A stretch of DNA of 64,000 bases from Isurus oxyrinchus (lineage: Eukaryota). The stretch spans positions 10,788,001-10,852,000 of the forward strand of contig JANJGN010000016.1 in assembly GCA_026770705.1 (NCBI GenBank), in the 5' to 3' direction. This document shows, one piece after another, positions 4,021 through 57,184 of this stretch. The notes under the pieces were generated by a model. The model made no database searches. It saw nothing but the letters and a program-made list of their open reading frames with translations, and was not told the DNA's origin. The translations under genes were made by a program, and so were the position numbers. Each line of letters begins with the position of its first letter. Within the stretch, counting starts at the first letter, position 1.

Positions 4021-4464
4021 GATTATTCCACTCTGCCCAACCACTCACCTAGGCTCAACCATCTTCAACTGCTTCGTCAATGAACTTCCTTCCACCATAA
4101 GTTCAGAAGTGGTGATGTTCGCTGATGATTGCACAATGTTCAACACCATTCGTGACTCCTCAGATACTGAAACATCCATGTCCAAACGCAGCAAGACCTG
4201 GACAATATCCAGGCTTTTGGCTGACAAGTGGCAAGTAACATTCATGCCACACAAGTGCTAGGCAATGACCATCTCCAAAAAGAGAGAATCTAATCATCAC
4301 CCCTTGACTTCAATAGCATTACCATCACTGAATCCCCCACTATCAACATCCTGGGGGTTACAGAGATAAAAACAAAGAAAACTGCGGATGCTGGAAATCC
4401 AAAACAAAAACAGAATTACCTGGAAAAACTCAGCAGGTCTGGCAGAATCGGCGGAGAAGAAAAG

Positions 4465-4503
4465 AGTTGACGTTTCGAGTCCTCATGACCCTTCGACAGA
4501 ACT
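4465..4503 (-). ncRNA. Minimal type-I hammerhead ribozyme motif (variant core CUGUCGA)
   Basis: Reverse complement reads agtt-CTGTCGA-a-gggtc-atgag-gactc-GAAA-cg-TC-aact; stem I agtt/aact, stem II gggtc/gactc. Confidence 0.75.
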
Positions 4504-4542
4504 AGTTCTGTTGAAGGGTCATGAGGACTCGAAACGTCAACT
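4504..4542 (+). ncRNA. Minimal type-I hammerhead ribozyme motif (core CUGUUGA)
   Basis: agtt-CTGTTGA-a-gggtc-atgag-gactc-GAAA-cg-TC-aact. Confidence 0.75.
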
Positions 4543-6087
4543 CTTTTCTTCTCCGCCGATGCTGCCAGACCTGCTGAGTTTTTCCAGGTAATTCTGTTTT
4601 TGTCCTGGGGGTTACAGTTGACCAGAAACTAAAGTGAACCAGCCACATAAATACTGTAGCTACAAGAGCAGGTCAGAGGCTAGGAATCATGCAGCGAGTA
4701 ACTAGCCACCTGACTACCGAAACCTCGTCCATTATCTACAAGGCACAGGTCAGGAGTGTGATAGAATATTCCCCACTTGCCTGGACAAGTTCAGCTCCAA
4801 CAATGCTGAGGAAGATTGACAACATCCAGGACAAAGCAGCATGCTTGACTGGCACCACATCCACAAACATTCATTCCCTCCACCACTGACACAAAGTAGC
4901 AGCAGTGTGTACCATCTACAAGACGAATTGCAGGAATTCACCAAGCCTCCTTAGACAGCACCTCCCAAACCCAGGACTGCTACCATCTAGAAGGACAAGG
5001 GCAGCAGCTAGGTGGGAACACCAACACCTGGAAGTTCCCCTCCAAGCCACTCACCATCCTGACTTGGAAATATATCACCGTCGCTGGCTCAAAATCCTGG
5101 AACTCCCTCCCTAACAGCACTGTGGGTGTACCTACATCACATGGACTCCAGCGGTTCAAGAAAGCAGCTCACCAACCACCTTCCCAAGACAATTAGGAAT
5201 GGGCAGTAAAGGCTGGCCTAGCCAGCGATACCAACATCCATGAATGAATTAAAAAAAGACTGTTCCCCACCACCCATGAAAAGGATGGAATCTCTCCGGA
5301 ATCATAGTGAGATCTGGCTCTGGAATTATTTATTGTTACGGACAGGAGGTGGTTTAATTTTAACAGCCTTGATTTCTCCCCTCACCACCTGCCCATAAAC
5401 ATAAAGGTGTTTTGATTTTGATGTCCCCCTTTATAAGCGGTGGCGTATTTCCCTACCCCTGAGTTTTAGCGTGATCTAATTTTTATTAACAATCCCACAG
5501 CAGACTTGAGATAAAGTCAGAGTGTTAGTTTATTCACATACACTCGAAATATGGGGGGCAGCGGCAGGGGAGGTGGTTGTCTCTACGCAGCCCCCTGTGC
5601 ATTTATACAATAAAGGGGAGATAGAGGGAGAAAGATTTATAGAGCAAAGCCCAGAGAGGAAAGAATTATTTTTTCACATGAGTCCAGAATCCAGAACCTA
5701 AGGCCAACAGTATATTCCTTTACAGAGGTTGGCAGGTTGAAAACTGATGCTGAATATTTTACTTTTCCAGTTGAGATGATTTCCACAATGAGATAGGCAC
5801 ACAGGGATGTGTTAGTCTTATGGGCGATGGTATAGAAGTTCTGAAGTCCCAGTAGAAACAATGTATATAGGGGCCAGGCATTCAAACCTGAACAGAACCC
5901 ATTTTCTGAGCTGCTGCTAGATGGAAATAATAGGCTGGGTTTTGCAGCTCCAGAAGGCAATATTACAGGTTCTTCCAGCTGGGTGGGTTGGGGGTGGGGG
6001 GTGGTGGGGGGTTGCAGGTAGGGATCATTTCACATGACTACCATCTCTCCACTTTGACAAAGGGTGTAAAAGGGTCTATATATTTTT

Positions 6088-16196: not shown

Positions 16197-17069
16197 GAGG
16201 AGCAGGCTGGAAAAGTCGCTGGATTGCAATAAATTTGAAATAGTCTTTAAAAATTACATTATTGACTTTGAGACCCTAAATAGGCACACAATCTTTCTTT
16301 GGTGAGGTGGCTGAAATTGGGGGCAGAACAGGGATGTTTGAAGGAAGGCTTTTGAAAGTTGGGAGACTAAGATGGATGGCTGGAAGGGAGAAGGCTAGGA
16401 ATGAGCTGGCTACAGGTGTTGAGGAACAGAGCAGTGCTGCGTAGAGCGTGTGAATAATGGATGGATGCATCAAAAAGGCAGTGTGGAGAGAGATCTTGTC
16501 TGATTCGTGAATGAAGACCAAGAACTTGAAGTCAGTTTAACATGGGGATCATCAGCCAATGGCAGTGAGTGAGAAGCTGTGGGGATAGGTGAGCGAGACC
16601 TGGTGTGGGGTTAGTGATGTGAGGCGCAGCATCTAGAAGCTATGACGATTTTTGCATGCTTGATATTAGCATTGCTTTATCATAAACAATAACAAGATCT
16701 TTACCTATTTTAAATGATTACATTTTCATAGAAGGGTCAATAAGAAAGGTACAATTTTCTCCCCTCTTATTCCAATTCCTTCCCTCTTCCGTTTGCAGGC
16801 ACTAACTCCCAACAGGGGTATCTACAAAGACTCCCTTGAAATCTCAACCACTCATCTATATGTGATGTCAATGAGTGCAGTGAGGGCTTTTCAACCACGG
16901 AAGGCATCATAGTCAAGCCTGATTGAATAGGTGATCTGGCACTCAAGCTAAGTTACAAGAAGGACATGGACTGGAAATACAGAGGCCACATTGTGAAGCA
17001 AAAGCTCTGGCAATCTCTCCTTTCGAGAGCACCTCCTTCTGCCAGTGCTGAAGCACTGTATCTTCCCTA

Positions 17070-17510
17070 CATGTTGTCAGCTTTGGGTCAATTGGGTAAC
17101 ACTCTTGTCTCTACATCAGCCCTGCTCCAGGACTTGAGCACAAAAATCTAGTGCAGTACTAAGGGAGTGCCGCACTGTCAGTGGCACCATCTTTCAGATG
17201 AGCCTTTAACCGAAACCAGATCAACTGCTTTTGTGATGTTGATTGAGGAATAAGTATTGGCTGGGACTAAAGGGATATTTCCCCCCTGCTTTTCCTCTAG
17301 GTAGTGTCATGGGATCATTTGGGTCCACCTGAGAGGGCAAATAGCCTCAGTTTAACATCACATTCAAAGAACAGCACCCATCGGCAGTGCAGCGCTGCCT
17401 GAGTACCGTGCTGGGAGTGTCAGCTTTGATCTTTTCCTCGAGCCTCTGGACTGAGACTGGAACACGTGGCCTTCTGGAGCAGAGGCCATAGTGCTGCCAA
17501 CTGAGCCACA
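17070..17510. mobile_element. Two Deu-SINE fragments in opposite orientation
   Basis: gcagtactaagggagtgccgcactgtcag on plus; gtttaacatcacattcaaagaacagcacc...cagtgcagc on minus. Confidence 0.65.
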
Positions 17511-18408
17511 TGAGTAAGAGTCAACACAGGAAAACAGAATGTTCCTATCAATAAGTCAAAAGGAAAAAGTGGGAGAACTCTCCATCTTCCCACCATAACA
17601 GTTCATGAAACAAGGACTTGTGTAGTACAAATTTAATTGTCTACCCGCTTGATGCACTTTTAAGTTAATCAGCTCAATGTACTGTGATTGTGATTTGATT
17701 ATTGTCTGAGGATCCTAATAAAATAGCAAGAGTGTCCTATTCAGTTCTGGCAACTGCTGTTCCTTGTTCAAGCAGCACTGGGTATGAGTGACACTGTGTG
17801 AAGCAGCACTGTGGTCCACTTGCACTGTGTGATCAGAGATCATTGTTAGAAGCAAGATCCGCAACCCCCTGGTGAAAATCAGATGCCATCCGACGGCTGG
17901 CACCATGAAGTCCAATGCCTCCCACCCCCGCAATGTCTGCCCTCCACTGAAGTCTGAATCTGCCCCCCACACCACCACCGCCCCCCCACCGCCAAACCCC
18001 TCAACCCACACCCCCACCCCCCCTCCCCACACCACCATCCCTTGCAGTATCTGTTCCGCCACCCAGCAATATTTCACACCCCACACTTCCACCAGCTTGC
18101 CTGACATCGACTCCCCGGTTGCTCTCCCACCCGGCAGGTAGGGAGTAGCGGCAAGCTGGCTAGCTGTTGGGCGGGAAGCCTATGGAAAATATTTAATGGA
18201 CATCCTGCCCGGCAGGATTTGTGAGAAGTCCGTACCTCTGGGCTTTCCGTATGGACATCCTGCCCCAGAAACCTACCCAGCTCTGAGCAAATGTTGGGGA
18301 CGAACGTGTCCGTGGAGTGCCTGCTTGTATGAGCTGGTAAACCACGAACACCTCAGCAGCCAAACAGCTGCTCTCTCTCACTCTCTATCGTACACATATG
18401 AATATGAT

Positions 18409-18442
<34 letters not shown>

Positions 18443-19109
18443 CATTTGCTGAGGTAATCAGCAGACTGTGAGTGGGAAGCGGTAGCAAATAAGGAACAGG
18501 CAATAGATTTCAGAATTCTGCTGGTAAATTGTTCCTGCTCTCTTTTAATTTAACCCGTTTACAGTAAAATCTATTGATGTGCTCATTGCTAACATAGTAC
18601 TGCTTGATTTTAACCTGCCTGATTTGTTTCCCTCAGCTCAAGCAAGTGTAATGTTATTTAATTGTTTGTGGCAGAGTCTTTCCAATTTTGGTGAGCCTCC
18701 TGTCATATAGATTTCTTTGCGAGGGAGCTGTTCCATATACATCTGGCTGTGTTCACGGGAGGTTTGGAGAGATGTGGGAGGGAAGCCAACATCATACTAA
18801 AATAAGAAGGTAGTAAAGTCATGGGATGAGGGCATGGGTTCAATGGGCCGATGGGTCTTCTTCCCTGTCACAAGATTCTACCATTCTTAAAACGCTTGGA
18901 TCATCAAGCCTGTTATTTCCACTGACAACTTGATAAAGTTGGAGATGTTGAACAACCCCGCATTTATGTAGTGCCTTTCATGACCTCATGTCTTACCAAA
19001 GTGCTTCACTGCCAATGAAGTGTTTTTGCAATATAGCCACAGTTGTAATGTCGGAAACGTGGAAGTCAATTTGCAGACACCCACAAACAAAATGACCAGA
19101 GCATCCGTG

Positions 19110-19830
19110 AATCAACGAAATTTGCAGCACTGAAGGAGGCCATTTGGTCCATCATGTCCATGCTGACCAACAAGGAGCCACCCTTGAACACAGCCTAATT
19201 CCACTTTCCAGCTTTTGGTCTATATCCTTGTAGGTTACAGCACATGTATTTTTAAAATGTAATGAGAGTCTCTGCCTCTACACTTCAGGCAGTGAGTTTC
19301 AGATCCTCATCACTCTCTGGTTGAAAATATTCTCCTTGAAACCCCTCTAACCCTCCGACCTCTTACACCAAATCTGTGTTCGCTGGGTTACGGACCTCTC
19401 ACACAAGGGGAATAGGTCCTTCCTATTCACTTTATCCCGATCTCTCATATTTTTATACACTCCAATTAGGTACTCCTTAGCCTCCTCTGTTCCAAAGAAA
19501 GCAACCTTATCTTATGCAATCTTTCCTTATAAACTAAAATTCTCCAGTGAAGACAACATAATCATAAACCTCCTCTGTACCCCCTCTAGCACAATCACAT
19601 CTTTCCTTTAGTACGGGGGCAAGAACTGTATGCAGGACTCCAGCTGTGGCCGAACTAATGTTTTATACAGTTCCAGCATTGCCCCCCCCCCCCCCACAGC
19701 TGTAAAATTCTAAGTCTCAGCTAATAACGGCAAATATCCTGCATGCCTTTTTGACCAGCTTATCTAACCTGTCCAGCCAGCTTCAGGGATCTGTGAACAT
19801 TCATTCCAAGATCCCTCTGTTCCTCGGCAC
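19110..19830 (-). mobile_element. Old CR1 3' fragment
   Basis: gaaggaggccatttggtcc tail; cttagcctcctctgttccaaagaaagcaacc; aactgtatgcaggactccagctgtgg (reverse PQLEYC). Confidence 0.75.
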
Positions 19831-20389
19831 TTAGTATCCGACTTTTCATTTGAGTTCATCGAGAGAAAAATGTAAAATTTTTTGGATGGGTTACCAGGGA
19901 TAACTCCCCTGCCCTTCTGAAAAAATAGTGCCATAGAATGTTGACTACCTGAGAGGACAGATAGGACGTTGGTTTCACATCTCACCTCAGCCCTGTACTG
20001 TGAGTTTCAGCCTAAATGATATAATCAGGGTCGCTCCAGAGACTTGAACACACTGGAAAAAGAAGAATCTAGTGCTATTCAAGTGAGTATTTTTAAAACT
20101 GGAAGCATTTTCATTTTTCCATTCATATTTATGCCAATTTGCCATATGCAGGCACTGGGTTGCTGATCTGAGCTGAGCAGCGCATATGTGCGAGTTGCGT
20201 AAGTGTCAATGAGCTGTTGTTTTGTGCTCGTAGGTTGCTTCAGAGAGAAGGAAAGAGTTTTCTTCATTGCTGTGTGCATGAAGCAAAATCTGTCTAGCAT
20301 GGTGTCTGTGTGAGAAAAGGGGAAACTTGGCATCAGCACTAAAATTACTATGAAAAGGAAAAGAGAAATGGGGATGAAGTTATACATAA

Positions 20390-24019: not shown

Positions 24020-25291
24020 GCGCAGAATTGTCCCAGATTTACACTAAGTGCAGTAGCGGACCGGAAAAAGGACCTTTTTTTTACCCGCTGGCCGCAATGG
24101 CGGGTTTTCACACTTTTCGTCCCAACCCTGCCTCATGAATCATGCACTTCCGGGAAACAGGCTGCTTTGCTGGTGTGGAGCCTCTGATTCACCTGCCAAG
24201 CCGTCGCCCTGTTGCGTTCTGATGTCAGGCGCCATATTTAAAGTGCAGCCGCGTGTACACCTCTCAGTTCTTCCAGCCCAGTGGCTGCTCCAAAGAAGAC
24301 ATGGCCTCGAAAGGCAAGAAGACATCAATGGGGTGCCTTCTGGACACAGTCGGAGCCCACCGCAATGTCCTCTACCCCCGCTCTGGCTGCAGGAGGGGCA
24401 TCAGTGTCACCACTCCGGCTTGGGAGGCGGTGGCAGAGGTGGTCAGTGCCAGTGCTGCACACAGGAGGTCGGCCATCCAGTGCAGAAAGAGGATGAATGA
24501 CTTCATCCATGCCGCCAGAGTAAGGCAACCATCTCATCCCTCTAAACTCACACACTCACAAGGTCATCACACATTCACTGGCATCTCACTCTCTGCCAGT
24601 CCAAGGAACATCACCACTCACTCTCTCACACACACACCCTCACATCTCCACCCGGCCTCATCTCCTCTGGAGACTGCATCCTCAGCCCTCACCCTCTTGA
24701 GGCCACTCGCACAGATCAACATTTGCCCCCAAACACGCCTTAGAATACCTTCCTTCCCAAGTAATGCAGCCTCTTCCCTTGCCTGAGGCCACTTCTCCCC
24801 CCTTCCCCAAGCAAACCCTAGCGCTGCAGCTGTTGAAAAGCCACCCCTCCGCTTTGCCACTGCTGTCATAAGTAGAGACCTGCCCGTGAGCCCCCCTCAA
24901 AGTGATGTGATGCTGTCTGTGAAGCCTGGCGCTGGTGCCTGTGATTGCTACCCAAAGCAAGGTGGGCAAACAAGCCTCAGAGTCCAGAGTGCAGTGCAGC
25001 CCGCCAGGTGCATGTTGTTTATGTCCAGTCGTGAAACGCGTTGGCCTGCAATCACGCTAACATGCCCAGATGATCCAGCGTGGGGGGGATAATTCCGACG
25101 AGCAGGGCTTGTAATGATGTATCGATGTATTAAAATGATGTTCCCGATGTCCAGTGGCGGGAAACACATCCCACCATTGATGGGCGGAGCGGTTTCATGG
25201 CGTCATGAAACTGATTTTTGGCCTTTCTGCCATCTTGTCCGCTCACACCCGCCATGACACTTGACACCAACAGGCACAAGAAATTCTGCCC
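24020..25291 (+). mobile_element. Non-autonomous Harbinger derivative retaining Myb exon 1
   Basis: ORF LLDTVGAHRNVLYPRSG...TPAWEAVAEVVSASAAHRRSAIQCRKRMNDFIHAAR then gtaag; ends gcgcagaattgtcc and gaaattctgccc; colinear with 14978-16196. Confidence 0.85.
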
Positions 25292-26449: not shown

Positions 26450-27012
26450 CAGTGAATAGAATGGTTACAGGACAGAAGGAGGCCATTTGGCCCATCGTGT
26501 CCATCCCTGCTCTCTGCAAGAACCATTCAGCTAGTCCCGCTCTCCCACCTTTTCCCTGTGAATCCTGTCATTTTTTTTTTCTTTTCAGATGATTATCCAG
26601 TTCCTCTTGAAAACCAAGATTGAATCTGCATCTGCCACACTCTCAGGGAGTGCATTTCAGATCCTAATTACTCACTGCGCAAAGATATTTTTTCTCATGT
26701 CGCCTCTTGGCTCTTTTGCCGTTCACCTTGAATCAGCGTCCTCTGGACATTGACCCTTCCGCCAATGGGAACAATTTCTCCCTATCTACTCAGTCCAGAC
26801 CCCTCATGATTTTGAACACCTCTATCAAATCTCCTCTCAACCTTCTCCTCTCCAGGGAGAACAGCCCGGGCTTCTCCAATCTACCCGTGTAACTGAAGAC
26901 CCTCACCCCTGGAATCATTCTTGTAAATCTTTTCTGCACTGTCTCTAATGCCTTCATATCCTTCCTACAGTGTAGTGCCCATAACTGGGCACAATACTCC
27001 AGCTGAGGCCAA
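26450..27012 (-). mobile_element. CR1 3' fragment (duplicated at 27405-27888)
   Basis: PQLEYCAQLWALHCRKDMKALETVQKRFTRMIPG...GLFSLERRRLRGDLIEVFKIM. Confidence 0.9.
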
Positions 27013-28283
27013 GGCATTAATTGAAGGTCAACAGGCAGGTTTCCTGGCATTCAGACCAACATACATGTGAACAAACATGCAAAATAGAGCTGGAGTTGGC
27101 CATTGATGCACCTTTCCCAACTAGATATCAGCATAAAGAAAGTTTGGCTCATCATACATTTTGTTGAATGAGTGAAATTCATTCATTTCTGATGCAATCG
27201 ACCTGAAATGCTATCTCTCTCCAAGATACCGCCTGATCTGTCGAGTGTTTCCAACTTTGCTGTTTTTATTTTAGTCATTTATTTTGCTGTTGGATCCTTG
27301 CTTCGTACAAAATGCAACTGGCACACATGCCAATTGGAGTCACCACACTTCAAAAAGCAATCCATTACGTGCAAGAGGAGCTGTGATGTTTTCAAGAGGG
27401 GGGTGCTAGTCCCGCTCTCCCACCTTTTCCCTGTGAGTCCTGTCATTTTTTTTTTCTTTTCAGATGATTATCCAGTTCCTCTTGAAAACCATGATTGAAT
27501 CTGCATCTGCCACACTCTCAGGGAGTGCATTTCAGATCCTAATTACTCACTGCGCAAAAGATATTTTTTCTCATGTCGCCTCTTGGCTCTTTTGCCGTTC
27601 ACCTTGAATCAGCGTCCTCTGGACATTGACCCTTCCGCCAATGGGAACAATTTCTCCCTATCTACTCAGTCCAGACCCCTCATGATTTTGAACACCTCTA
27701 TCAAATCTCCTCTCAACCTTCTCCTCTCCAGGGAGAACAGCCCGGGCTTCTCCAATCTACCCATGTAACTGAAGACCCTCACCCCTGGAATCATTCTCGT
27801 AAATCTTTTCTGCACTGTCTCTAATGCCTTCATATCCTTCCTACAGTGTAGTGCCCATAACTCGGCACAATACTCCAGCTGAGGCCAAGACATTAATTGA
27901 AGGTCAACAGGCAGGTTTCCTGGCATTCAGACCAACATACATGTGAACAAACATGCAAAATAGAGCTGGAGTTGGCCATTGATGCACCTTTCCCAACTAG
28001 ATATCAGCATAAAGAAAGTTTGGCTCATCATACATTTTGTTGAATGAGTGAAATTCATTCATTTCTGATGCAATCGACCTGAAATGCTATCTCTCTCCAA
28101 GATACCGCCTGATCTGTCGAGTGTTTCCAACTTTGCTGTTTTTATTTTAGTCATTTATTTTGCTGTTGGATCCTTGCTTCGTACAAAATGCAACTGGCAC
28201 ACATGCCAATTGGAGTCACCACACTTCAAAAAGCAATCCATTACGTGCAAGAGGATCTGCGATGTTTTCAAGAGGGGGGTGCT
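26530..28283 (+). repeat. Tandem duplication, two copies of about 876 bp
   Basis: Copies 26530-27404 and 27405-28283; ORFs recur at +876; roughly 10 differences; gct microhomology at the junction. Confidence 0.95.
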
Positions 28284-30002: not shown

Positions 30003-30392
30003 AGGGGAGGCAGTGGCAAAGCGGTGTGATGACCATTGTCGATTGTTGTAAAAACCCATCTGCTCACTAATGTCCTTTCGGGAAGGAAATCTGCCATCCT
30101 TACCTGGTCTGGCCTACACGTGACTCCAGACCCACAGCAACGCGGTTGACTCTTAAATGCCCTCTGAAATGGCCCAGCAAGCCACTCAGTTTCACCACCA
30201 GCTTCTTAAGGGCAATTAGGGATGGGCAAAAAATGTTGGTCAACAGTGACCACACTTCAAAAAGTATTTCATTGGCTGTAAAGCACTTTGAGACATCCAG
30301 TGATCACGAAAAGTGCTATATAAATGCAAGTCTTTCTTTACTTTCTCCTCTAGGAGTGGGGCTAGCGATGCCCACATCCAATTAATAATAAA
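30003..30392 (+). mobile_element. tRNA-SINE carrying a 118-bp inverted insert
   Basis: ggaaggaaatctgccatccttacctggtctggcctacacgtgactccagacc...; tail interrupted at 30241-30358. Confidence 0.85.
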
Positions 30393-30790
30393 GAGATATA
30401 AAAGAACCTACAGACCTGCTATGGGACTTCATCATCCACATTTCTTATAGTCTGATCATAGGGAGCTGGGCCCTTGACATGGACCTGCAGCTTAAAAGGA
30501 TAGTGGGTGCATGGTAGTATTATAACCTCAAAATCACACACCTTCCCAACTTGAGCATATATCACCCATTCTTTCATCCTTACTGGGTTCAAATTCTGGG
30601 ACTGCCTGTCATGGTGGGATTTGAACTGCTGTTGCCAGAGTATTAGCTCGAGACTCTGAATGATTAGTTCAGTGACAATACAAATGTTCCACCATCTCCC
30701 TAAACTATCCAAGACCATAGACCATGAGTGTTTCAGTGATACTCAATTGCAGCGGGCACCACAGGTGGGCCTGATCCAATCTTAACCTCA

Positions 30791-30997
30791 AAGAAAACTG
30801 CGGATGCTGGAAATCCAAAACAAAAACAGAATTACCTGGAAAAACTCAGCAGGTCTGGCAGCATCGGCGGAGAAGAAAAGAGTTGACGTTTCGAGTCCTT
30901 CTGTCGAAGGGTCATGAGGACTCGAAATGTCAACTCTTTTCTTCTCCGCCGATGCTGCCAGACCTGCTGAGTTTTTCCAGGTAATTCTGTTTTTGTT
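30791..30997. mobile_element. Short palindromic Penelope-derived insertion
   Basis: Inverted arms around a 17-bp spacer (30900-30916); perfect 16-bp TSD tccaatcttaacctca at 30775-30790 and 30998-31013; hammerhead motif at 30899-30935 on plus. Confidence 0.95.
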
Positions 30998-31049
30998 TCC
31001 AATCTTAACCTCACTTGGCTTCCAAACCAGTGCCTCACTCCTAGAGGAG

Positions 31050-31310
31050 AAAGTAAAGAAAGACTTGCATTTATATAGCACTTTTCGTGATCACTGGATG
31101 TCTCAAAGTGCTTTACAGCCAATGAAATACTTTTTGAAGTGTGGTCACTGTTGTAATGTAGGAAACACAGTACCTAATTTGCACACAGCAAGCTCCCACA
31201 GACAACAATGTGATAATGATCAGATAATCTGTTTCTTTTGTGATGTTGATTGAGAGACAAATGTAGGCCTGAACTCCGGGGAAAACTCCCCTGCCCTTCT
31301 TGGGGTATTT
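31050..31310 (-). mobile_element. Deu-SINE 3' half
   Basis: aaagacttgcatttatatagcac...ctttacagccaatgaaatactttttgaagtgtggtcactgttgtaatgtaggaaa. Confidence 0.85.
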
Positions 31311-38686: not shown

Positions 38687-39572
38687 AAGCAGCACATTTG
38701 GAAAGTGCTGATTTTCTTTTCTTCTTCTTTCCCGATGTTCCAAGCTTCACATCCATAATTCATTACTGACCAGATGTAATATTTTAGTATACCGATTCTC
38801 ACTTCAAGACTCAAGCTGCATTTCAATTGAGACAATAAAAAGCTCGCACCCTAAGGAAAATTTCATGCAATGATTCATCAAATATCAGTCAGAAACAGGA
38901 AAACTGCTGCCCTCTTTCCCTCAGCCACTGGCTTGTAGGTGCTAAGACCGAACTGGCAAGCTTGGTACCTGGTGATGACGGGTCTCACACAAGCCTGGGC
39001 ACAAATTAATATCCCCAGGAATACGCAACAGCGACAGCAGCAGCAACAGCTTGCTTTATGTAACACTCTGAAAGTCACATTGAGCCAATAAGGAATTCAG
39101 GAGAAAATAGCCCAACCCTGCAGAAAAAAGTGTGACACCCACCACCAGATAGGGTGGTTGAGGTGAATAGCACAGGTGCATTTAAGATGAACTCGGTAAG
39201 CTAAGGAGAAACAAATAGAAGGGTATACTGATAGGGTTAGATGAAGGGGGTTTATGTGCAGGATAAACAGTAGGATGGGCCACTTGGGGCAAATGGCCTG
39301 TTTCTGTGGTATAGATTTGATTTAAGAAATCTGGGAGGTGGCAGATGCCTTCCTATATAACGTCACATTACAACAGGCAGCACATTCATCCACTACACCT
39401 TTAGGGGAGCCAACATTGGGTATGAAGAATGGATTAAAATATACCATAGATTGCAGGGTATAAGTCGACCTTTGAAGCATTGAAGAACCATATACCGAGC
39501 ATAAAATATGAACCAAAACAGAATTACCTGGAAAAACTCAGCAGGTCTGGCAGCATCGGCGGAGAAGAAAAG

Positions 39573-39611
39573 AGTTGACGTTTCGAGTCCTCATGACCCT
39601 TCGACAGAACT
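39573..39611 (-). ncRNA. Type-I hammerhead motif in Penelope pseudo-LTR
   Basis: Reverse complement of 41546-41584. Confidence 0.75.
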
Positions 39612-40006
39612 TGATTTCGAGTCCAAGAAAGAGTTGAAATATAAGCTGGTTTAAGGTGTGTGTGTGTGGGGGGCGGAGAGATAGAGAGAGAGAGAGGTGG
39701 GGGGTGTGGTTGTGTAGACAAACAAGCAGTGATAGAAGCAGATCATCATAAGATGTCAGCGACAATGGTACAGAAGAACACATAGGTGTTAAAGTTAAAG
39801 TTGGTGATATTATCTAAACGAATGTGCTAATTAAGAATGGATGGTAGGGCACTCAAGGTACAGCTCTAGTGGGGGTGGAGGGAGCATAAAAGATTTTAAA
39901 ATATTTAAAAATAATGGAAATAGGTGGGAAAAGAAAAATCTATATAATTTATTGGGAAAAAAAAAGGGAGGGAAAACAGAAAGGGGGTGGGGATGGGGGA
40001 GGGAGC

Positions 40007-40795
40007 TCACGACCTAAAGTTGTTGAATTCAATATTCAGTCCGGAAGGCTGTAAGGTGCCTAGTCGGAAGATGAGGTGTTGTTCCTCCAGTTTGCGTTGG
40101 GCTTCACTGGAACAATGCAGCAAGCCAAGGACAGACATGTGGGCAAGAGAGCAGGGTGGAGTGTTAAAATGGCAAGCGACAGGGAGGTTTGGGTCATTCT
40201 TGCGGACAGACCGCAGATGTTCTGCAAAGCGGTCGCCCAGTTTACGTTTGGTCTCTCCAATGTAGAGGAAACCACATTGGGAGCAACGAATGCAGTAGAC
40301 TAAGTTGGGGGAAATGCAAGTGAAATGCTGCTTCACTTGAAAGGAGTGTTTGGGCCCTTGGACGGTGAGGAGAGAGGAAGTGAAGGGGCAGGTGTTACAT
40401 CTTTTGCGTGGGCATGGGGTGGTGCCATAGGAGGGGGTTGAGGAGTAGGGGGTGATGGAGGAGTGGACCAGGGTGTCCCGGAGGGAGCAATCCCTACGGA
40501 ATGCCGATAAGGGGGGTGAAGGGAAGATGTGTTTGGTGGTGGCATCATGCTGGAGTTGGCGGAAATGGCGGAGGATGATCCTTTGAATGCGGAGGCTGGT
40601 GGGGTGATAAGTGAGGACAAGGGGGACCCTATCATGTTTCTGGGAGGGAGGAGAAGGCATGAGGGCGGATGCGCGGGAGATGGGCCGGACACGGTTGAGG
40701 GCCCTGTCAACGACCGTGGGTGGAAAACCTCGGTTAAGGAAGAAGGAGGACATGTCAGAGGAACCGTTTTTGAAGGTAGCATCATCGGAACAGAT
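40007..40795 (-). CDS. Penelope ORF C-terminus (RT thumb/linker plus GIY-YIG endonuclease), 5'-truncated and uninterrupted
   Basis: PLVLTYHP, AFRR..SLRDTLV, CPRKRCNTC, FTCISPNLVYCIRCSQCGFLYIGETKRKLGDRFAEH, VACHF, EQHLIFRLGTLQPSGLN. Confidence 0.92.
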   Translation of the reverse strand: MCSDDATFKNGSSDMSSFFLNRGFPPTVVDRALNRVRPISRASALMPSPPSQKHDRVPLVLTYHPTSLRIQRIILRHFRQLQHDATTKHIFPSPPLSAFRRDCSLRDTLVHSSITPYSSTPSYGTTPCPRKRCNTCPFTSSLLTVQGPKHSFQVKQHFTCISPNLVYCIRCSQCGFLYIGETKRKLGDRFAEHLRSVRKNDPNLPVACHFNTPPCSLAHMSVLGLLHCSSEAQRKLEEQHLIFRLGTLQPSGLNIEFNNFRS

Positions 40796-40798
40796 CTG

Positions 40799-41153
40799 CC
40801 AAGGGCCCAAACACTCCTTTCAAGTGAAGCAGCATTTCACTTGCATTTCCCCCAACTTAGTCTACTGCATTCGTTGCTCCCAATGTGGCTTCCTCTACAT
40901 TGGAGAGACTAAACGTAAACTGGGCGACCGCTTTGCAGAACACCTGCGGTCTGTCCGCAAGAATGACCCAAACCTCCCTGTCGCTTGCCATTTTAACACT
41001 CCACCCTGCTCTCTTGCCCACATGTCTGTCCTTGGCTTGCTGCATTGTTCCAGTGAAGCCCAACGCAAACTGGAGGAACAACACCTCATCTTCCGACTAG
41101 GCACTTTACAGCCTTCCGGACTGAATATTGAATTCAACAACTTTAGGTCGTGA
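40799..41153 (+). CDS. Second copy of the Penelope GIY-YIG endonuclease domain, 5'-truncated
   Basis: Same peptide as the minus arm from QGPKHSF to FRS*. Confidence 0.9.
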
Positions 41154-41545
41154 GCTCCCTCCCCCATCCCCACCCCTTTTCTGTTTTCCCCCCCTTTTTT
41201 TTCCCAATAAATTATATAGATTTTTCTTTTCCCACCTATTTCCATTATTTTTAAATATTTTAAAATCTTTTATGCTCCCTCCACCCCCACTAGAGCTGTA
41301 CCTTGAGTGCCCTACCATCCATTCTTAATTAGCACATTCATTTAGATAATATCACCAACTTTAACTTTAACACCTATGTGTTCTATTGTACCATTGTCGC
41401 TGACATCTTTTGATGATCTCCTTCTATCACTGCTTGTTTGTCCACACAACCACACCCCCCACCTCTCTCTCTCTCTATCTCTCCGCCCCCCACACACACA
41501 CCTTAAACCAGCTTATATTTCAACTCTTTCTTGGACTCGAAATCA

Positions 41546-41584
41546 AGTTCTGTCGAAGGGTCATGAGGACTCGAAACGTCAACT
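41546..41584 (+). ncRNA. Type-I hammerhead motif in Penelope pseudo-LTR, predicted cut after 41580
   Basis: agtt-CTGTCGA-agggtc-atgag-gactc-GAAA-cg-TC/aact; stem I extendable by gaaa/tttc. Confidence 0.78.
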
Positions 41585-43239
41585 CTTTTCTTCTCCGCCG
41601 ATGCTGCCAGACCTGCTGAGTTTTTCCAGGTAATTCTGTTTTTGTTTTGGATTTCCAGCATCCGCAGTTTTTTTGTTTTTATAAAATATGAACCCCCTGG
41701 TGTTGGTGTAAGTGGTCGCCATTTTGAAATATGAAAAAATTCTGTTTGCTGGTCACCATGCGCAGTCTGCTATGCGTGGATGTGTCTTAAACTCCTGCAC
41801 ATCTTGGAAACATGGTCTGTATCACTTACTCGACCCCCATGTGCCAAATTACATGTCGAGTATAACTCTGAGCATGTATTTCCGAGCGGAAAAAGTGAGG
41901 CTGACTCCAAATGCGAGTATAGCCCTAAACATATATTTATTAGATGGAAACTTGTGTGTTGAGTGATTGTGGTAAAGTGTGGTACCCTGTCCCTTTAAGA
42001 GAATGCATATACTGATCATGTGACTGCACAGTGGGCAACTGGGAACTGTACATTTAGTCCTGGAAGTTTCTGACTGATCACGTATGATCTGGTGCTCTGC
42101 CTTATGTCTCAATATACCATCAATGTTTATTCTTACATCAGTCTCCCCCCATTATTGATTGCAAGCAGCAATTGAGTTAGAGATCAGTTGGCCAATGAAT
42201 TCATTTACCCAAAACATAAAACTTATGCATTGAGTATAGGCTCAAATATGCATTTTGCCATCCAAAAACAGGGGGCGCCTAATCTGCTGGGTCAAATTAT
42301 ACAACACAATCTATGGTAGCTGAGGTAAATTTAAGATCAAATTAGACCAGTTAGGCAGAATGGCCTGATCCTCAGATGCTAATTCTCTGAATGTTTATGT
42401 GTCCAGACTTGTGTGGGAGGTTAAATTTACAAGTGCATTAAGACCAGGGGTCAATCAGGTAGCCGCATGCATGACAATTCCCGATACTCTAGTTGCCATC
42501 AGCTAGCTCAGCCCAGGCCAGGAACCTCGCTAAAGCAGTTTATTCTAGTCATGGATAATATAAAATCTTGCTGGTAATGTTTATTTGAGGTGACAAAGGG
42601 CTTCAATCCCCTCATGTTTGGGTTAGATTAACACAGATTCAATGCCAAAACATCTGAGGGCAACACCAGTGCTGAATGATATAAATGGATTGTATTCCTG
42701 TTTTAAGGTAGAAAGCATACTAATCTTATCTGATTTACTGCCAGCTACACATCGGCATGATCCTCCCGTTAAGGGACTGCTGAAGTGAAAAATGAAGATT
42801 CTTGGCCAGGCCGTGCTGTGTAAGTTGCTGTGCAACAGTTGTTCAAAGCACCCCTTGGCTGAGGGTACTGAAGATGGAATGGGTTGGAATGCTTCACATG
42901 ATCGAATATCCCACTGGTGCTCTGGGCTCACATAAAAGGAATGGCTGTATGGGCAAGATGGCACCAACGCTTATGCCACCTTACCATACCCCTCAACAAA
43001 GAGTCTGTATCTTTATGAAAGAAAGGTGGGTGGGGCAAGTTATAAAGAAAAGAAAATGAAAAATAAGTGTCTGTGTACAACGTGGAGAGGGAATGCTTAT
43101 TCTTCCAAATAGCATTGTAGGTTAAGGTCAGTTTATTGTTAGTGTGTTTGTGGGTATGTGTTGACTGGGTGGAACGAGAGTGATGTCAGATCACTAAGCC
43201 ATGCTATCAATGAGAAATCATAAACTAATCGCTTGAGGG

Positions 43240-45550: not shown

Positions 45551-45649
45551 CCTCTCTTGAAGATTGAAGTGTGACCTCAATGCAATTGGTCCAAAACTAA
45601 CCATTTAGGGTGTTTCTCTTTGTTCTTTTAGGCACGTTATTAAAATGTT

Positions 45650-45935
45650 AAATACAAACAGAAAATGCTGGAAATACTCAGCAGGTCAGCCAGCAACTGT
45701 GGAGAGAAAAAAAAAACAGAGTTAATGTTTCAGGTTGCTGACCTTTCACCAGGACTGAAGAAAGCTGGAAACATAATAGGTTTTGAACAAGTGAAAGGAG
45801 GGAGGAGTAGGGATAACACAAGGGATGATCTGTGAGAGGACAGGAGAGATTAAATGGCAAAATGGTTCATGACGCAAGAGCCAGAGGGAGTGGTAATGTG
45901 TACTTTTATTGTCTCCACCACATCAAAGACCTTTC
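45650..45935 (-). mobile_element. Older Penelope 3'/pseudo-LTR fragment with degenerate hammerhead
   Basis: aaatgctggaaatactcagcaggtc...agagttaatgtttcaggttgctgacctttcaccagg (reverse: CTGGTGA-aaggt..acct-GAAA-ca-TT-aact). Confidence 0.7.
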
Positions 45936-46829: not shown

Positions 46830-49800
46830 AAACAAAGGTACCTTACAGACAGCGTCCCAGACACCACCATCACCATCCCTGGGTATGTCCTGTCCAACAG
46901 GCAGGACAGACCCAGCAGATGTGACGGCACAGTGGTATACAGTCAGGACGGAGTTGCCCTGGGAGTCCTCCACATCGACTCTGGACCCTATGAATTCTCA
47001 TGGCATCAGTTCAAACATGGGCAAGGAAAGCTCCTGCTGATTACCACGTACCACCCTCCCTCAGCTGATGAATCAGTGCTCCTCCATGTTGAACACCATT
47101 TGGAGGAAGCACTGAGGGTGGCAAGGGCGCGGAATGTACTCTGGGTGGGGGACTTCAATGTCCATTATCAAAAGTGGCTCGGTAGCACCACCACAGACCG
47201 AGCTGCCCAAGTCCTAAAGGGCATAGGTGCTAGACTGGGTCTGCAGCAAGTGCTGAGGGTATCAACAAGAACACAAGGGAACGTCTGTGAGAGGACAGGA
47301 GAGATTAAATGATAAAATGGTTCATGATGCAAAAGTCAAATGGAGTGGTAGTGCATACTTTTATTGTCTCCACCAAATCAAAGACTTATGGGGAGGTGGT
47401 GGCATAGTGGTATTGTCACTGGACTAGTACTCCAGGGACCCTGGGTAATTCTCTGGGGAACCTGGGTTCAAATCCCACCATGGCAGATGATAAAATTTGA
47501 AATCAATTAAAAGTCTAATGATGGCCATGAAACTGTTGCCAATTGTCATAAAGTCTCACTTGTTTCACTAATACCCCTTAGGGAAGGAAATCTGCCGTCC
47601 TTACCCCACTTACCCTACATGTGACTTCAAGCCCACAGCAATATGGTTGACTCGTATCTGCCCTCTAAAATGGCCTAGCAAGCCGCTCAGTTCTCAAGGG
47701 CAATTAGGGATAGACAATAAATGCTGGCCCAGCCAGTGACACTCACATCCCATGAACAAATGCCCACTCAACCTCATCCTCACCAACCTGCCTGCTGCAG
47801 ATACATCCGTCCATGATACTATTGGTAGGAATGATCACCGCACAGTCCTTTTGGAGACAAAGGCCTGATTTCACATTGAGCATACCTTTCATCATTTTGT
47901 GTGGCACTACAATCATGCTAAATGGGATAGATTTCGAATAGATCTAGCAACTCAAAACTAGGCATCCACGAGGTGCTTTGGGCCATCAGCAGCAGCTGAA
48001 TTGTACTCAACCACAACCTGCAACCTTGTGGCCCAGCATATCACCCACTACCATTGACAACAAGTCAAGAGATCAACTCTGGTTCAATGAAGGAGTGCAG
48101 GAGGGCATGCCAGGAGCAGCACCAGACATACCTAAAAATGAGGTGTCAACCTGGTGAAGCTGCAACACAGGACTACTTGCATGCCAAACAGCAGCAACAG
48201 CATACAATAGACCATAGATAAGCGATCCCAAAACCAATGGATCAGCTCTAAGCTCTGCAGTCCTGCCATATCCAGTCCTGAATGGTGGTGTACAATTAAA
48301 CAACTAATTAAAGGAGGAGGCTCCACAACTATCCTGATCCTTAATGATGGGAGAGCCTAGCACGTCAGTGCAAAAGACAAGGCTGAGGAATTTGCAACAA
48401 TCTGTAGCTATAAGTGCCAAGTGAATGATCCATCTCAGCCACCACCTGAGGTTCCCAGCATCACAATTGCCAGTTTTCAGCCAATTGGATTCACTCCACG
48501 TGATATCAAGAAACAGCTGAATGCATGGATACTATAAAGCCCCTGGCAACAGTCTGGCAATAGTACTGAAGGCTTGTGATCCAGAATTAGCCACACCCCC
48601 AGCCAAGCTGTTCAAGTACAGCTACAACACTGGCATCTACCAGGCAATGAGGAAAATTGCCCAGGTATGTCCTGTTCACAAAAAGCAGGAAAAATGCAAC
48701 CCAACCAAATACTGCTCCATCAGTCTGATCTCGATCACCAGCAAAATGATGGATAGTGTCATCAACAGTGCTGTCAAGCAGCACTTACTCAGCCATAACT
48801 TGCTCACCAATGCTCAGGTCATGTTCTACCAGGGCCATTCAGCTCCTGACCTCATTGCAGCCTTAGTCCAAACATGGACAAAAGAGCAGATCTCAAGAGG
48901 TGAGGTTAAATTGACTGCACTTGACCAAGTGTGGCATCAAGGAGCCCTAACAAAATTGAAGTCAATGGGAATTGGGGGGGGGGGAAATCTCTCCACTGGT
49001 TGGAGTCATACCTAGCACAAAGGAAGATGGTTGTGATTGTTGGAGGTTAATCATCTCAGCACAAGGACATCGCTGCAGGAGCTCCTCAGGGTAGCATCCT
49101 AGGCCCAACCATCTTTAGCTGCTTCATCAATGACCTTCCCTTCATCATAAGGTCAGAAGTGGGGATGTTCACTGATGATTGCACAATGTTCAGCACCATT
49201 CACGGCTCCTCAGACTGAAGCAGTCTGTGCCCACATGCAGCAAGACCTGGACAACATTCAGGCTTTGGTTGATAATTGGTGAGTAACATTCGTGGCGCAC
49301 AAGTGCCAGGTGATAACCATCTCCAACAAGAGGGAATTGAATCATCTCCTCTTGACGTTCAATGGCATTACCATCACTGAATCCCCCACTATCAACATCC
49401 TGGGGTTACCATTGAGCAGAAACTGAAATGGATCTGCCACATAAATACTGTGGCTACAAGAGCACATCAGACCCAAACGCCTGTCCACTATTTACAAGGC
49501 ACAAGTCAGGAGTGTGATGGAATACTCTCTACTTGCCTGGATGAGTGCAGCTCCAACAACATTCAAGAAGCTCGGCACCATCCAGGATAAATTGATTGGC
49601 ACCCTATCCACTATCTTCAACATTCACTTCCTCTACCACCGACGCACATTAACAGCAGTGTCTACAAGATGCACTGCAGCAACTCACCAAGGCTCCTTAG
49701 ACAGCACCTGCCAAACTTGCAGCCTTTACCATCTAGAAGGACAATGGCAGCAGATGCGTGGGAAGACCACCAACTGCACGTTCCCCACAAAGTCACTCAC

Positions 49801-54907: not shown

Positions 54908-55022
54908 AGACTCGAAACGTTAACTCTATTTCTCTCTCCACAGGTGCTGCTAGACCTGTTGAGTTTTTCCAGCATTTTCTATTTTTATTTCAGATTTCCG
55001 ACATCAGTGATATTTTGCTTTT
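54908..55022 (+). mobile_element. Older Penelope 3' tail fragment
   Basis: gactcgaaacgttaactctatttctctctccacaggtgctgctagacctgttgagtttttccagc. Confidence 0.75.
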
Positions 55023-57184
55023 AATCTTACTGAGAACAGTGTGCGTGCCTACAGTTTAGGTATGGCACCTGGAGTGAGGAAACAGTGAGGCAACAGTGTG
55101 GCGGGCGATTCAGAGGCCACCTGCCAGCGGTATGGCGTGTTTCCTGTGCCTGCATAATTAATGAGGCGAGAAGCGGATGATACGGGGCAAAAATCCACCC
55201 TTGCGGCCACCTGCCACCACATTTAGTGCTATTCAGGGAAAATTCCACCTTTAGTCTGCATGAGGGAGCCTTATGAAAGGTAAATCAAAAGGTAATCCTC
55301 ATTCCCCCCCATGGTTTCCCCCCCACTTACCCTCTGTGTCCACTCATACCCATGCCAAGGGATGCCCCCTACCCACACCTCAGACCCCCATTCCAAGCTA
55401 TGGCAATTCCATGCCCATTCACCCACAATACACCATATGGAACGAATGGAACCAATAGTGACAATAGGATGAGTAAAACAAAAGGTTAAAAAAACAGTCA
55501 TTCATTGATAGCTTCTCATTTTCTTAAAAAAAACTCCTTTTTACTGCAGTCAACAGTGGGAGAATGACAAAAATGGATTGGAAGCTCATGGATTTGATAG
55601 CTCTGGGCATGACTATTCCAACACACTCCTGGCTGACCTGGCACACTCTATGCTCTGTAAACTTGAGGTCACCTAAAGCTCCTCTGGCTGTGTCCTAATG
55701 CTTACCAAATCCCAGCCAAGTGTGCATAATGAGGCTTGGCAGAGACCCCAGGCATCCATTAGACTGCTGAAATAGCTGAGCCCCAGGTAAAACATTTTTT
55801 GATTGACAGGTCTGGCGCTCTGACCTCTTCTGTCAATTGCACAATGTTATTTGCATAACATTGCATAAGATAAAGAAGTTATTTGCATAAGATAAAGAAG
55901 TTTCAAGCTCCTGCAGCTTCTGCTATTGATAATTTAAAGGCTCTGGGAGATTGACATTTTTATTGGGCTGTAGCAAAAATGAGCGTTTTTTTTAAAGGAA
56001 TTGGGAAGTTATCATTGAACGATTGTTGTTTTAAGCTTCTTTTACACACCTATTGTCACCATAGGGTTCATTTGTTCTAGTAGGTGATTAGGTATGGAAG
56101 TGCCTTAGCTTTGCATGTGTGGACAGCATGAGGGGTCATGAGGGGTTGGCATGAGATGGCATGGGGGGGGCATGGAGATTGTGTGGGGAGTGAGGGGGTG
56201 TGAGGAGTCAGGGCTAGAGGGCCTTTCTTTCCTTATTAGAATTGGGATGAAGTCCCACAGCACCAAGACGGGCCTTTTAAACAGCCTGCCCTGACTCTCA
56301 GCTGCCCCTGAACCCTTTCCCAGGTCAGCTGGCCCGACTGCAGCTCGCATGGCACCTCCACAGTTAAAATCCCATCTTTCCTGGCACTTTCTCCAGAGGC
56401 GGATGGGCCGAGCCTGGAATCTTCCCAACTCCACTCTCAGCCCGGGGGATGAAAATCCAGGCCAATGTCTCCTTACGTGGCCTGGTGTCTAATTTTGCTT
56501 GATAATACATCTCCGAAGCACCTTGGGGTATTTTATCTTAAAGGCGCCATATAAATATACATCGCTGTTGTTGCTGGCAGGCCCTTGGTGGCAATAATTC
56601 CTCAGGTGGGTAGAAGAGAATGGGCCATCAAGTCAGGCCTTTTAGGGGCAAGGCTGGGGGTGGGGGTGCGTGACAGGGCTGACACTGAAGCTGCGAGAGG
56701 TTCAGGGAATACAAGAACAGACTGAGAATGGGGCACCTGACAATGTCCTCCAAAAAAATTCCCATGCCATTTTTTTTCTAGTGGTGTTTAAGGGATGTTG
56801 GTAAGGTCGCTCAACACATGGCATACTTTTATGTGAAAATGGCATTTGGGGTCTTACAACTGCCATAGGACCCTGCTCTATATATATGAAATGCTCTCTG
56901 TCTGCGTCTGTTTTGGGCAGGAGCATTGGGACATTTAAACACCTGCCCGAAATTGAATAACTTTAGTTGATGCACGTGATCAGATGCATGATCTGAGGAT
57001 GGCATCCATTCTCCGTCCAATAGTGGGCATGATTGAGCTCCCAACCTGGCGGGCCGAGGTATCGCTACGGGGCTTCCATGTGTGACCTCGATGGACACCT
57101 CCAGTGAAGAGTATAGGCAGTAGCGTATTGCACAGTTCCGGTCTCCAAACTACAGAAAGTGCATAGAACATAGGAGGAAGTGTA

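Follow-up and report, generated by a model that had tools for sequence, protein, structure and literature searches.

Independent head-to-head insertions of an abundant Penelope-like family in shark DNA, probably primed from both sides of a staggered cut

Introduction

How does a retroelement come to lie head to head with a truncated copy of itself, inside a single target site duplication (TSD) and with a tail at one end only? Three insertions raise this question in a 64,000-nucleotide stretch of Isurus oxyrinchus DNA, hereafter the window. The origin of one-tailed inverted copies has been called undefined (PMC8557442) and is left open in the accessible part of PMC11167929. A preliminary description of the window implied that the palindromic form is rare, which was mistaken: the inverted form is typical of Penelope-like elements or their most frequent form (PMC3846280, PMC8557442, PMC2377424).

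Results

Layout of the three insertions

Insertions A (4364-4602), B (30791-30997) and C (39515-41680) had been placed correctly, and each consists of a minus-strand arm followed by a plus-strand arm with the 5' ends central, as described. The TSDs are indeed perfect, with 15 bp for A (4349/4603), 16 bp for B (30775/30998) and 14 bp for C (39501/41681), in a window where a shared word of at least 14 nt occurs in 1 of 3000 random position pairs.

A, 4349..4363, unstranded: left TSD copy, 15 bp, exact repeat; single copy in two uninterrupted host-repeat paralogues
A, 4364..4503, - strand: left arm, 140 nt; 5' end matches 41546; 43-nt tail at 4364-4406
A, 4504..4602, + strand: right arm, 99 nt; 5' end likewise 41546; tail-less (+2); zero-spacer centre
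A, 4603..4617, unstranded: right TSD copy, exact repeat
B, 30775..30790, unstranded: left TSD copy, 16 bp, exact repeat
B, 30791..30899, - strand: left arm, 109 nt; 5' end matches 41566, within putative hammerhead stem II; 32-nt tail
B, 30900..30997, + strand: right arm, 98 nt; 5' end matches 41549; tail-less (+4)
B, 30998..31013, unstranded: right TSD copy, exact repeat
C, 39501..39514, unstranded: left TSD copy, 14 bp, exact repeat
C, 39515..40795, - strand: left arm, 1281 nt, 5'-truncated, tail-less (+0); family reads diverge past 40795
C, 40796..40798, unstranded: junction filler CTG, 3 nt, in neither arm's family sequence
C, 40799..41680, + strand: right arm, 882 nt, 5'-truncated, tailed; endonuclease frame 40800-41153
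C, 41643..41680, + strand: tail, 38 nt, the bases past the shared terminal sequence
C, 41681..41694, unstranded: right TSD copy, exact repeat

An inverted 5'-truncated copy, a one-sided tail and a TSD, the form expected of EN+ Penelope-like elements with their tail of 30-40 nt, are found in 3/3 insertions. The bases past GGTAATTCTGTTTT in the left and right arms number 43/2 in A, 32/4 in B and 0/38 in C, so the one-sidedness claimed for the tail holds throughout, while its length of 32-43 nt replaces the proposed 25-40 nt. Every insertion pairs one tailed with one tail-less arm, for which p is ~0.11-0.125 if ends are chosen independently (n = 3). Where the arms are unequal, in B and C, it is the 5'-shorter one that bears the tail (2 pairs only). 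Microhomology with the target measures 4, 2 and 2 nt at the tail ends, the 4 nt of A being read with the element continuation taken from family reads, and 1, 1 and 0 nt at the short ends.

The centres differ: A has a zero-spacer joint with no loop and no native inverted repeat, the arms of B share 1 nt (T), and C carries the 3-nt filler. A 2-nt microhomology at the C junction was considered and dropped, since family reads end the left arm at 40795. The arms of A, like those of B, differ by 1-2 changes, whereas the C arms (1281 versus 882 nt) are 98.1% identical, with 12 substitutions and 2 indels, and flank a 437-nt spacer. The proposed palindromic plan is therefore borne out as head-to-head arms in 3/3 insertions, but C is an interrupted inverted repeat and not a perfect palindrome.

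The host of A is an older repeat whose uninterrupted paralogues, 14176-13876 and 49264-49471, hold the target word once; no such paralogue was found in the window for B or C. In the close relative, the flank contigs listed for the C site start at 41701 and do not reach across the insertion site. Near B we observed a 122-nt inverted templated copy, indicating that local repair can make inverted duplicates.

Encoded protein and family placement

The left arm of C encodes the C-terminal part of a protein.

40007..40795, - strand: ORF, 262 aa to the stop, comprising the end of the RT thumb, a CX4CX2C linker and a GIY-YIG endonuclease with CCHH residues

Over its full length, this part is 63% and 60% identical to whale shark and zebra shark proteins (P0001 and P0002); its identity to P0003, which has both RVT_1 and GIY-YIG domains, is 48%. 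The Pfam GIY-YIG model matched with E = 2.4e-4 and 21.8 bits, slightly below its cut-off of 22.6. As in EN+ Penelope-like elements, the VY and YIG boxes enclose cysteines, and the invariant H193 and H209 are present; CX4CX2C at residues 128-136 corresponds to the CX2-5CxxC linker expected ahead of the endonuclease in Neptune. Family reads past 40795 give, when read by hand, the SQFLRLRR thumb motif, which precedes the same position in P0001 and P0002. Of the RT plus GIY-YIG originally named as the coding content of Penelope-like elements, the endonuclease is confirmed, while the RT core lies outside the window, which holds the thumb onwards. The Penelope-like identity itself is correct.

The CX2-5CxxC linker also occurs in Nematis and Naiad (PMC8557442). 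Because vertebrates are reported with Neptune and Poseidon only (10.64898/2026.07.22.740005), the family likely belongs to the Neptune clade, an assignment made by elimination from a window without the RT core. In 23 of the 29 window frames of at least 140 aa, no host-gene domain turned up, the matches being RT/endonuclease remnants and a weak Myb/SANT match.

5' ends and a hammerhead-like motif

41514..41520, + strand: TATA-like TATATTT, 32 nt ahead of hot spot 41546
41546..41546, + strand: 5'-end hot spot and recurring palindrome centre in family reads; both A arms begin here
41546..41584, + strand: putative minimal type-I hammerhead-like motif; mirror copy 39573-39611 (-)

Position 41546 is likely the transcription start of the element RNA, and TATATTT is a candidate promoter element; in sister copies, the loose-end consensus has this word too, 30 nt upstream. 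A sigma-70 promoter scan found nothing, the model being irrelevant to a vertebrate.

The hammerhead-like motif combines a 4-bp stem I, an extra A ahead of a 5-bp stem II and a palindromic ACGT helix III, with a predicted cut after 41580. Of the hammerheads previously assigned to the insertions, the 5' core box is present in 5/6 arms and is non-standard in sequence (CUGUCGA/CUGUUGA); the left arm of B begins inside stem II and lacks the box. The U in the box occupies what we take to be position A6 of the canonical hammerhead. An Rfam search returned no hammerhead family at E ≤ 1, and an unconstrained fold of the motif gave stem II only. The cut site as a source of 5' ends was unsupported: loose 5' ends are listed at 41546 and 41592, not 41581. 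All hammerhead-like copies in the window sit in inverted pairs. Non-LTR retrozymes were accordingly rejected, as their tandem head-to-tail hammerhead repeats do not occur there.

The family in raw reads and contigs

The zero-spacer centre of A recurs in at least 158 raw WGS reads of the close relative (83 + 75, with 28 starts each), and the contigs of both organisms analysed contain it as well. This junction type is thus not an assembly artefact, since raw reads contain it. Loose 5' ends at 41546 amount to 4,020 reads, against the 158 reads in inverted joints listed there. Depth was 24,243 within the tail and 44,762 just before the short end; after edge correction, 55-60% of ends are tailed (tailed to tail-less, about 55:45). 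X17, for which the RNA label is guessed, showed higher terminal depth and was set aside; contig depth is a poor guide to expression levels.

The family comprises roughly 10^4-10^5 ends. Among the joints listed in contigs, head-to-tail joints connect 41648 to 41421 (X1, X12) and 41682 to 41421 (X12), so the partial-tandem pseudo-LTR arrangement is present in family contigs; the window has none. It does hold two older relatives of the element, both single-armed, around which we found neither a TSD of at least 7 nt nor an inverted partner in the window; age may have erased these. With tandem forms and single-armed older relatives in existence, the suggestion that the family routinely integrates as palindromes is unproven. 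A DNA pattern scan for further copies gave 0 and then 3 chance 20-mer matches in the metagenome (GC-rich contigs L001-L003, no similarity beyond), 0 in prokaryote genomes and 0 in viral contigs.

Discussion

Origin of the inverted copies

We consider it probable that A, B and C are independent 5'-truncated insertions of an abundant Penelope-like family in the inverted-plus-tail form known for the class, made by reverse transcription primed at each 3' end of a staggered cut. The GIY-YIG endonuclease would nick the two strands at points offset by 14-16 nt, and the TSD would arise from the resulting pair of 3' overhangs. At an outer start site, the tail end, one overhang would prime by pairing 2-4 nt of target with the RNA; the second overhang would prime 30-40 nt upstream, at an inner start site. 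Each cDNA would halt early or run off the RNA 5' end at 41546, the cDNA 3' ends would be joined head to head (blunt, with a 1-nt overlap or with a 3-nt filler), and each joined cDNA would template the second strand of the other. Priming from both nicks, already put forward for these insertions, fits best with the TSD geometry, the tail on the 5'-shorter arm and the zero-loop centre of A, though for the element family itself it is extrapolated. Almost no primer pairing is seen at the short ends, which might therefore be endonuclease-cut ends. In the accessible part of PMC11167929, a Poseidon protein of the anole cuts the two strands in vitro and extends each of them, is predicted to dimerise and begins at two sites bracketing the tail; this in vitro work, as far as that part goes, does not address inverted products. 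Such biochemical support would carry over by analogy, as Poseidon is another clade.

A self-primed origin is possible but doubtful: one cDNA primed at a single nick, or a self-primed antisense RNA, would snap back and copy the first strand, after which the endonuclease would resolve the hairpin and leave the tail at one end. The micro-palindromes at the junctions of A and C, the latter an 8-bp one completed by the CTG filler, count against two-nick priming, since the published reading of such palindromes is self-priming (PMC3846280), and EN-mediated resolution has been offered as the source of the tail (PMC8557442). Of the 15 family-variable sites listed, the C arms also agree at 10 and differ at 5, where 4 of the differences are alleles rare in reads; near-identity of the arms at insertion fits a DNA copy equally well. 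At 41385, however, the arms hold two alleles, each of them frequent in the family (T in 1,680/5,813 reads), the only such site among the 5 of 12 C-arm substitutions listed. By a hand estimate, the chance that 1 of 12 private changes falls on such a site is 5-10%. Folding back also leaves unexplained the centre of A, which has neither loop nor native inverted repeat. Furthermore, because the tailed arms of B and C are 5'-shorter, they are no plain DNA copies of their tail-less partners; the tail sits on the would-be second arm, and the template must have lost its own later. This argues against simple fold-back and favours two-nick priming.

The remaining explanations carry far less weight. An inverted arm added after insertion, by a second insertion in or beside the first or by a repair-made inversion, is improbable: the anole enzyme cuts its own ORF-pLTR junction according to the available text of PMC11167929, and the templated copy near B is a repair-made inverted duplicate, but a single perfect TSD surrounds both arms in 3/3 cases, no second TSD lies at a centre, and subfamily alleles are common to both arms. 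We regard as very unlikely a few pre-formed palindromic master copies moving as units, MITE-like or as SINE-like non-autonomous elements. A and B are MITE-sized and the 41546 centre recurs in many reads of the close relative, but that position is a general 5'-end hot spot, and centres, arm lengths and tail ends all differ in 3/3, with unequal termini and TSDs of 14-16 bp. A MITE or TIR DNA transposon proper was rejected (termini differing by 28-41 nt, TSDs of 14-16 bp, three unlike centres). Least credible are fold-back chimeras of assembly or library preparation. None of the contigs listed spans the C junction, and the raw reads are the close relative's, not the source organism's; yet the arms are not identical (1-2 changes separate those of A and those of B, and 12 substitutions plus 2 indels those of C), and chimeras could not yield TSDs, one-sided tails and the same centre in the close relative's randomly sheared WGS reads.

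Within two-nick priming, we tentatively propose that a single RNA serves two reverse transcriptases in tandem, a leading one that sets out at the inner site from one nick and a trailing one that sets out at the tail site from the opposite nick and displaces the first cDNA. If so, each insertion would have exactly one tail and the tailed arm would never be 5'-longer, a pattern that 10^4-10^5 ends make countable within one genome. The 200-240-bp stumps would then be strong-stop-like cDNA pairs run off the TATA-driven start at 41546, and the long-unexplained inverted-plus-tail signature of Penelope-like elements would be accounted for.

Being abundant, with long, clean TSDs and 5' ends sharply concentrated at one hot spot, the family is a test bed, in which counts of tails on one or both arms, of the longer arm and of arm haplotypes can separate two-nick priming from fold-back. 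That the insertions could form dsRNA and cruciforms, as predicted, is a trivial consequence of their sequence. Should palindromic copies be numerous, the genome would also contain many hairpin templates of 100 bp to 1 kb. Repeat libraries could then mislabel short palindromic copies as MITEs or microRNA precursors; Rfam miRNA matches on the palindromes are below the gathering score and reflect the hairpin only.

Comparison with known systems

An inverted copy with a one-sided tail and a TSD is the textbook Penelope-like form and is not new. What is new is the zero-spacer centre in raw reads, the ~55:45 ratio of tailed to tail-less ends, the one-base 5'-end pile-up and the tail on the 5'-shorter arm. 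As in Drosophila virilis Penelope and Adineta vaga Pen2a, a 5'-truncated inverted copy lies head to head with the main copy and the TSD surrounds the unit (PMC2377424, PMC3846280, PMC8557442); a 30-40-nt tail at one end, junction palindromes, partial tandems and a terminal-repeat hammerhead, putative here, are likewise common to them. The TSDs are 14-16 bp here versus 8-10 bp in A. vaga. Unlike canonical Penelope-like elements, A and B are reduced to pLTR stumps about 200-240 bp long, and the shark family is orders of magnitude more abundant.

The motif resembles the minimal metazoan PLE hammerheads in its 4-bp helix I, extra nucleotide between 9 and 10.1 and palindromic helix III (PMC4209133), and opposite-strand pairs 100-700 bp apart are reported in the accessible part of that paper; its core, CUGUCGA with U at position 6, is a variant unmentioned there. 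The available portion of PMC12910113 contains nothing on structure. In green anole Poseidon PAc, as in the shark family, 3' ends fall at two points that lie downstream of the hammerhead and are separated by 30-40 nt, and 5' ends lie off the ribozyme cut site, as they do among the loose ends listed here; PAc starts in an AC-rich stem-loop, whereas the shark ends have a U-rich sense strand (PMC11167929, whose accessible part offers no model of how inverted copies arise). Poseidon belongs to another clade and has no linker finger, while the C-terminal GIY-YIG with CCHH and the CX4CX2C linker are like those of Neptune (P0001, P0002), compared without the RT core. In LINE-1 twin priming, two target 3' ends prime cDNAs that are joined midway inside one TSD, giving an inversion without 3'-end duplication and a poly(A) tail. 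Unlike its products, both arms of the shark insertions end in the same terminal sequence.

Structure of the insertions

Re-inspection of the window sequence bore out the positions of the three Penelope-like insertions (A, B, and C) and the plan attributed to them in the preliminary description, in which a minus-strand arm precedes a plus-strand one and the 5' ends face inward. The target site duplications (TSDs) are indeed perfect, since exact direct repeats adjoin all three insertions; as a control for their length, words of at least 14 nt were common to 1/3000 random position pairs within the window. The extra 3' tail on a single arm was also recovered, with 32 to 43 nt counted after GGTAATTCTGTTTT instead of the ∼25 to 40 nt first claimed.

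Copies of the family in the window (extra bases are those beyond GGTAATTCTGTTTT)
4364-4602, - then +: insertion A; TSD of 15 bp (4349/4603, exact direct repeat); extra bases, left 43, right 2
30791-30997, - then +: insertion B; TSD of 16 bp (30775/30998, exact direct repeat); extra bases, left 32, right 4
39515-41680, - (39515-40795) then + (40799-41680): insertion C; TSD of 14 bp (39501/41681, exact direct repeat); extra bases, left 0, right 38
45641-45770, -: older relative 1, single-armed; TATA-like word and hammerhead-like motif kept, the latter also without A6
54909-55023, +: older relative 2, single-armed; tail kept

Insertion A interrupts an older repeat, of which two paralogues in the window (77% and 85% identity) are continuous across this site and hold the target word a single time, confirming target duplication upon insertion; no site-spanning paralogue of B or C was found within the window. 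BLAST of C against the window returned no close copies besides A, B, and C themselves; its other matches were the two older relatives (77-83% identity), for which neither an inverted partner nor a TSD of at least 7 nt was found. The tail (window 41643-41682) resembles a degenerate repeat of the segment before it (TTTCCAG, then a T/G tract), which places each of the two 3' end points in a U-rich tract behind the same motif.

Abundance and end points in sequencing reads

A run search listed 24 runs, with a share of words of ∼0.8 for organism A and ∼0.6 for its close relative, organism B. Four runs were mapped onto 40362-42161: raw whole-genome reads of organism B (X21; 163,896 mapped reads from ∼3% of the run), contigs of organism A (X1) and of organism B (X12), and a set from organism A that may be RNA (X17). 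Joint figures come from 15 of 577 joints and variant figures from 40 of 504 variant rows. In X21, the terminal 100 nt were covered to a depth of ∼39,000 and the coding part to 10,000-20,000, against 0.2-2.8 for three bins of flank, which points to a family with roughly 10^4-10^5 ends in organism B. Reads left the element at 41648 (4,250), 41673 (5,610), and 41682 (9,387), and depth was 44,762 immediately before the short end versus 24,243 in the tail, which puts tailed ends at 55-60% after edge correction. This fraction is compatible with one tailed and one short end per insertion but also with independent use of two sites.

Among the ends listed, the 5' hot spot was 41546, with 4,020 loose ends. 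Both arms of A begin exactly there, and the right arm of B begins at 41549. Opposite-strand joints 41546/41546 and 41546/41547 were supported by 83 and 75 reads, respectively (28 starts each, among the joints listed), and joints of this kind were also present in contigs of both organisms. The A-type centre is thus not an assembly artefact. No listed contig bridges the C junction.

Putative start site and hammerhead-like motif

The word TATATTT lies 32 nt 5' of 41546. The loose-end consensus of sister copies has it 30 nt upstream and finishes in an initiator-like context; the rest of their spacer is different. From these motifs we infer that 41546 is a likely transcription start. Between this TATA-like box and 41546, two words of 10 nt recur in the hammerhead region (41520/41579 and 41533/41567, covering 41520-41542 and 41567-41588); as the sister spacer differs, template switching may have overwritten the spacer of this subfamily. 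A splice-donor-like CAG/GTAATT occurs at 41627-41635, 84 nt past the putative start, and its GT is missing from both older relatives.

Hammerhead ribozymes had been proposed in the arms, and their architecture was found: at 41546-41584, stem I measures 4 bp, stem II (5 bp) is preceded by an additional A, and helix III is palindromic, and the 5' core box of the motif is found in 5/6 arms, with CpG-type decay in two of those. The canonical core was not, as the box reads CUGUCGA, with U in place of A6, a normally invariant core position, and an Rfam search with E up to 1 gave no hammerhead match. We call the motif hammerhead-like. PMC4209133 describes the same architecture for metazoan minimal hammerheads and reports opposite-strand pairs 100-700 bp apart.

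Family identity

In the left arm of C, an open frame of 262 aa runs from 40795 to 40007, and its GIY-YIG match falls slightly below the Pfam cutoff (E 2.4e-4). The best of 17 longer relatives, from whale shark and zebra shark, are 63% and 60% identical over the entire query; other relatives of 800-900 aa have a reverse transcriptase (RT) domain, and one (P0003) additionally has a GIY-YIG match. Within the window, tblastn found no RT core. A CX4CX2C linker and CCHH residues are visible in the alignment. This linker is assigned to Neptune, Nematis, and Naiad, not Penelope/Poseidon, in PMC8557442, and among Penelope-like elements (PLEs) of vertebrates a 2026 preprint (10.64898/2026.07.22.740005) finds Neptune and Poseidon alone. 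By linker and vertebrate clade range, C is thus likely a Neptune element. The insertions represent a real, abundant, new family, probably of Neptune type, with the known inverted-plus-tail signature.

Origin of the palindromes

We lean toward two-nick priming for the palindromic insertions. A 14-16-nt staggered cut would leave two 3' overhangs, each placed to prime an inward-pointing cDNA, and priming from both would give the observed geometry directly. The tail ends have 4, 2, and 2 nt in common with the target (A, B, and C, respectively), the short ends 1, 1, and 0. The junction is blunt in A, has a 1-nt overlap in B, and in C contains 3 nt of filler that complete an 8-bp palindrome, the left arm ending at 40795 according to mapped family reads. 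One tailed and one short arm were seen in 3/3 insertions (chance p ∼0.12). An anole Poseidon protein, a predicted dimer that takes uncleaved RNA, nicks and extends both strands in vitro, with two start sites bracketing the tail (PMC11167929).

Fold-back or self-priming, which we consider rather unlikely, would have one arm templated by the other. In published work, junction palindromes are taken as a sign of self-priming on an antisense template (PMC3846280) and the tail is ascribed to endonuclease resolution (PMC8557442). The arms of C, with 12 substitutions between them over 844 nt (1 at CpG), are alike at 10 of 15 family-variable sites in the common part, and include a rare allele in the right arm at 4 of these 15 (among 40 of 504 variant rows), differences mostly compatible with arms identical at insertion. 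At 41385, each arm has a different allele and both are frequent in the family (T in 1,680/5,813 X21 reads), one hint of two templates. The tail-less arm extends further 5' in B (41549 versus 41566) and C (1281 versus 882 nt), so the tail sits on the 5'-shorter arm, which fold-back would copy from the tail-less longer one, and the loop-less centre of A is beyond what fold-back can give. Together, these features favour two cDNAs.

It had been suggested that the family routinely integrates in this form. Loose ends at 41546 are ∼25-fold in excess over inverted joints (158, among the joints listed), and contigs contain head-to-tail joints from 41648 or 41682 back to 41421, which speaks against "routinely". 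The consensus agreement of the loose ends is 0.51, indicating a mixture of sister subfamilies with diverse flanks, and Illumina reads likely under-represent short hairpins.

Other features of the window

A 122-nt segment 18 nt right of the B TSD (31032-31153) has an inverted copy (121/122 identical) at 30241-30362, ∼430 nt left of B in another old repeat, where it replaces a few bases without a TSD; its sequence suggests a templated repair insertion. A tandem duplication at 26530-28283 (unit ∼876-879 bp, 99% identity) is either recent and local or a product of the assembly. A weak Myb/SANT-like match at 24223-24786 (E 0.0035), with related repeats at ∼8542 and ∼15641, may derive from a Harbinger-type transposon. 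Remnants of LINE-type RT and endonuclease lie at 2456-3169 (-) and 46830-49015 (+), and no host-gene domains were found in 23 scanned window frames.

Comparison with known elements

A literature search, its scope ending short of the 2005-2006 reviews and most subscription titles, found neither an explicit two-nick model for inverted PLE copies nor an inverted PLE structure for sharks. The inverted layout itself is already published as typical for PLEs: in the general plan drawn in PMC8557442, the inverted copy is 5'-truncated and a tail of 30-40 bp is often confined to one end, and PMC2377424 gives the inverted-repeat form as the most frequent in D. virilis. The latter also places an intron 46 nt past the start of D. 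virilis Penelope and describes its promoter as TATA-less; pseudo-LTRs with TATA and Inr-like motifs appear in PMC3846280. In structure, the shark insertions are ordinary for PLEs, and their use lies in testing an unsettled PLE mechanism by counting.
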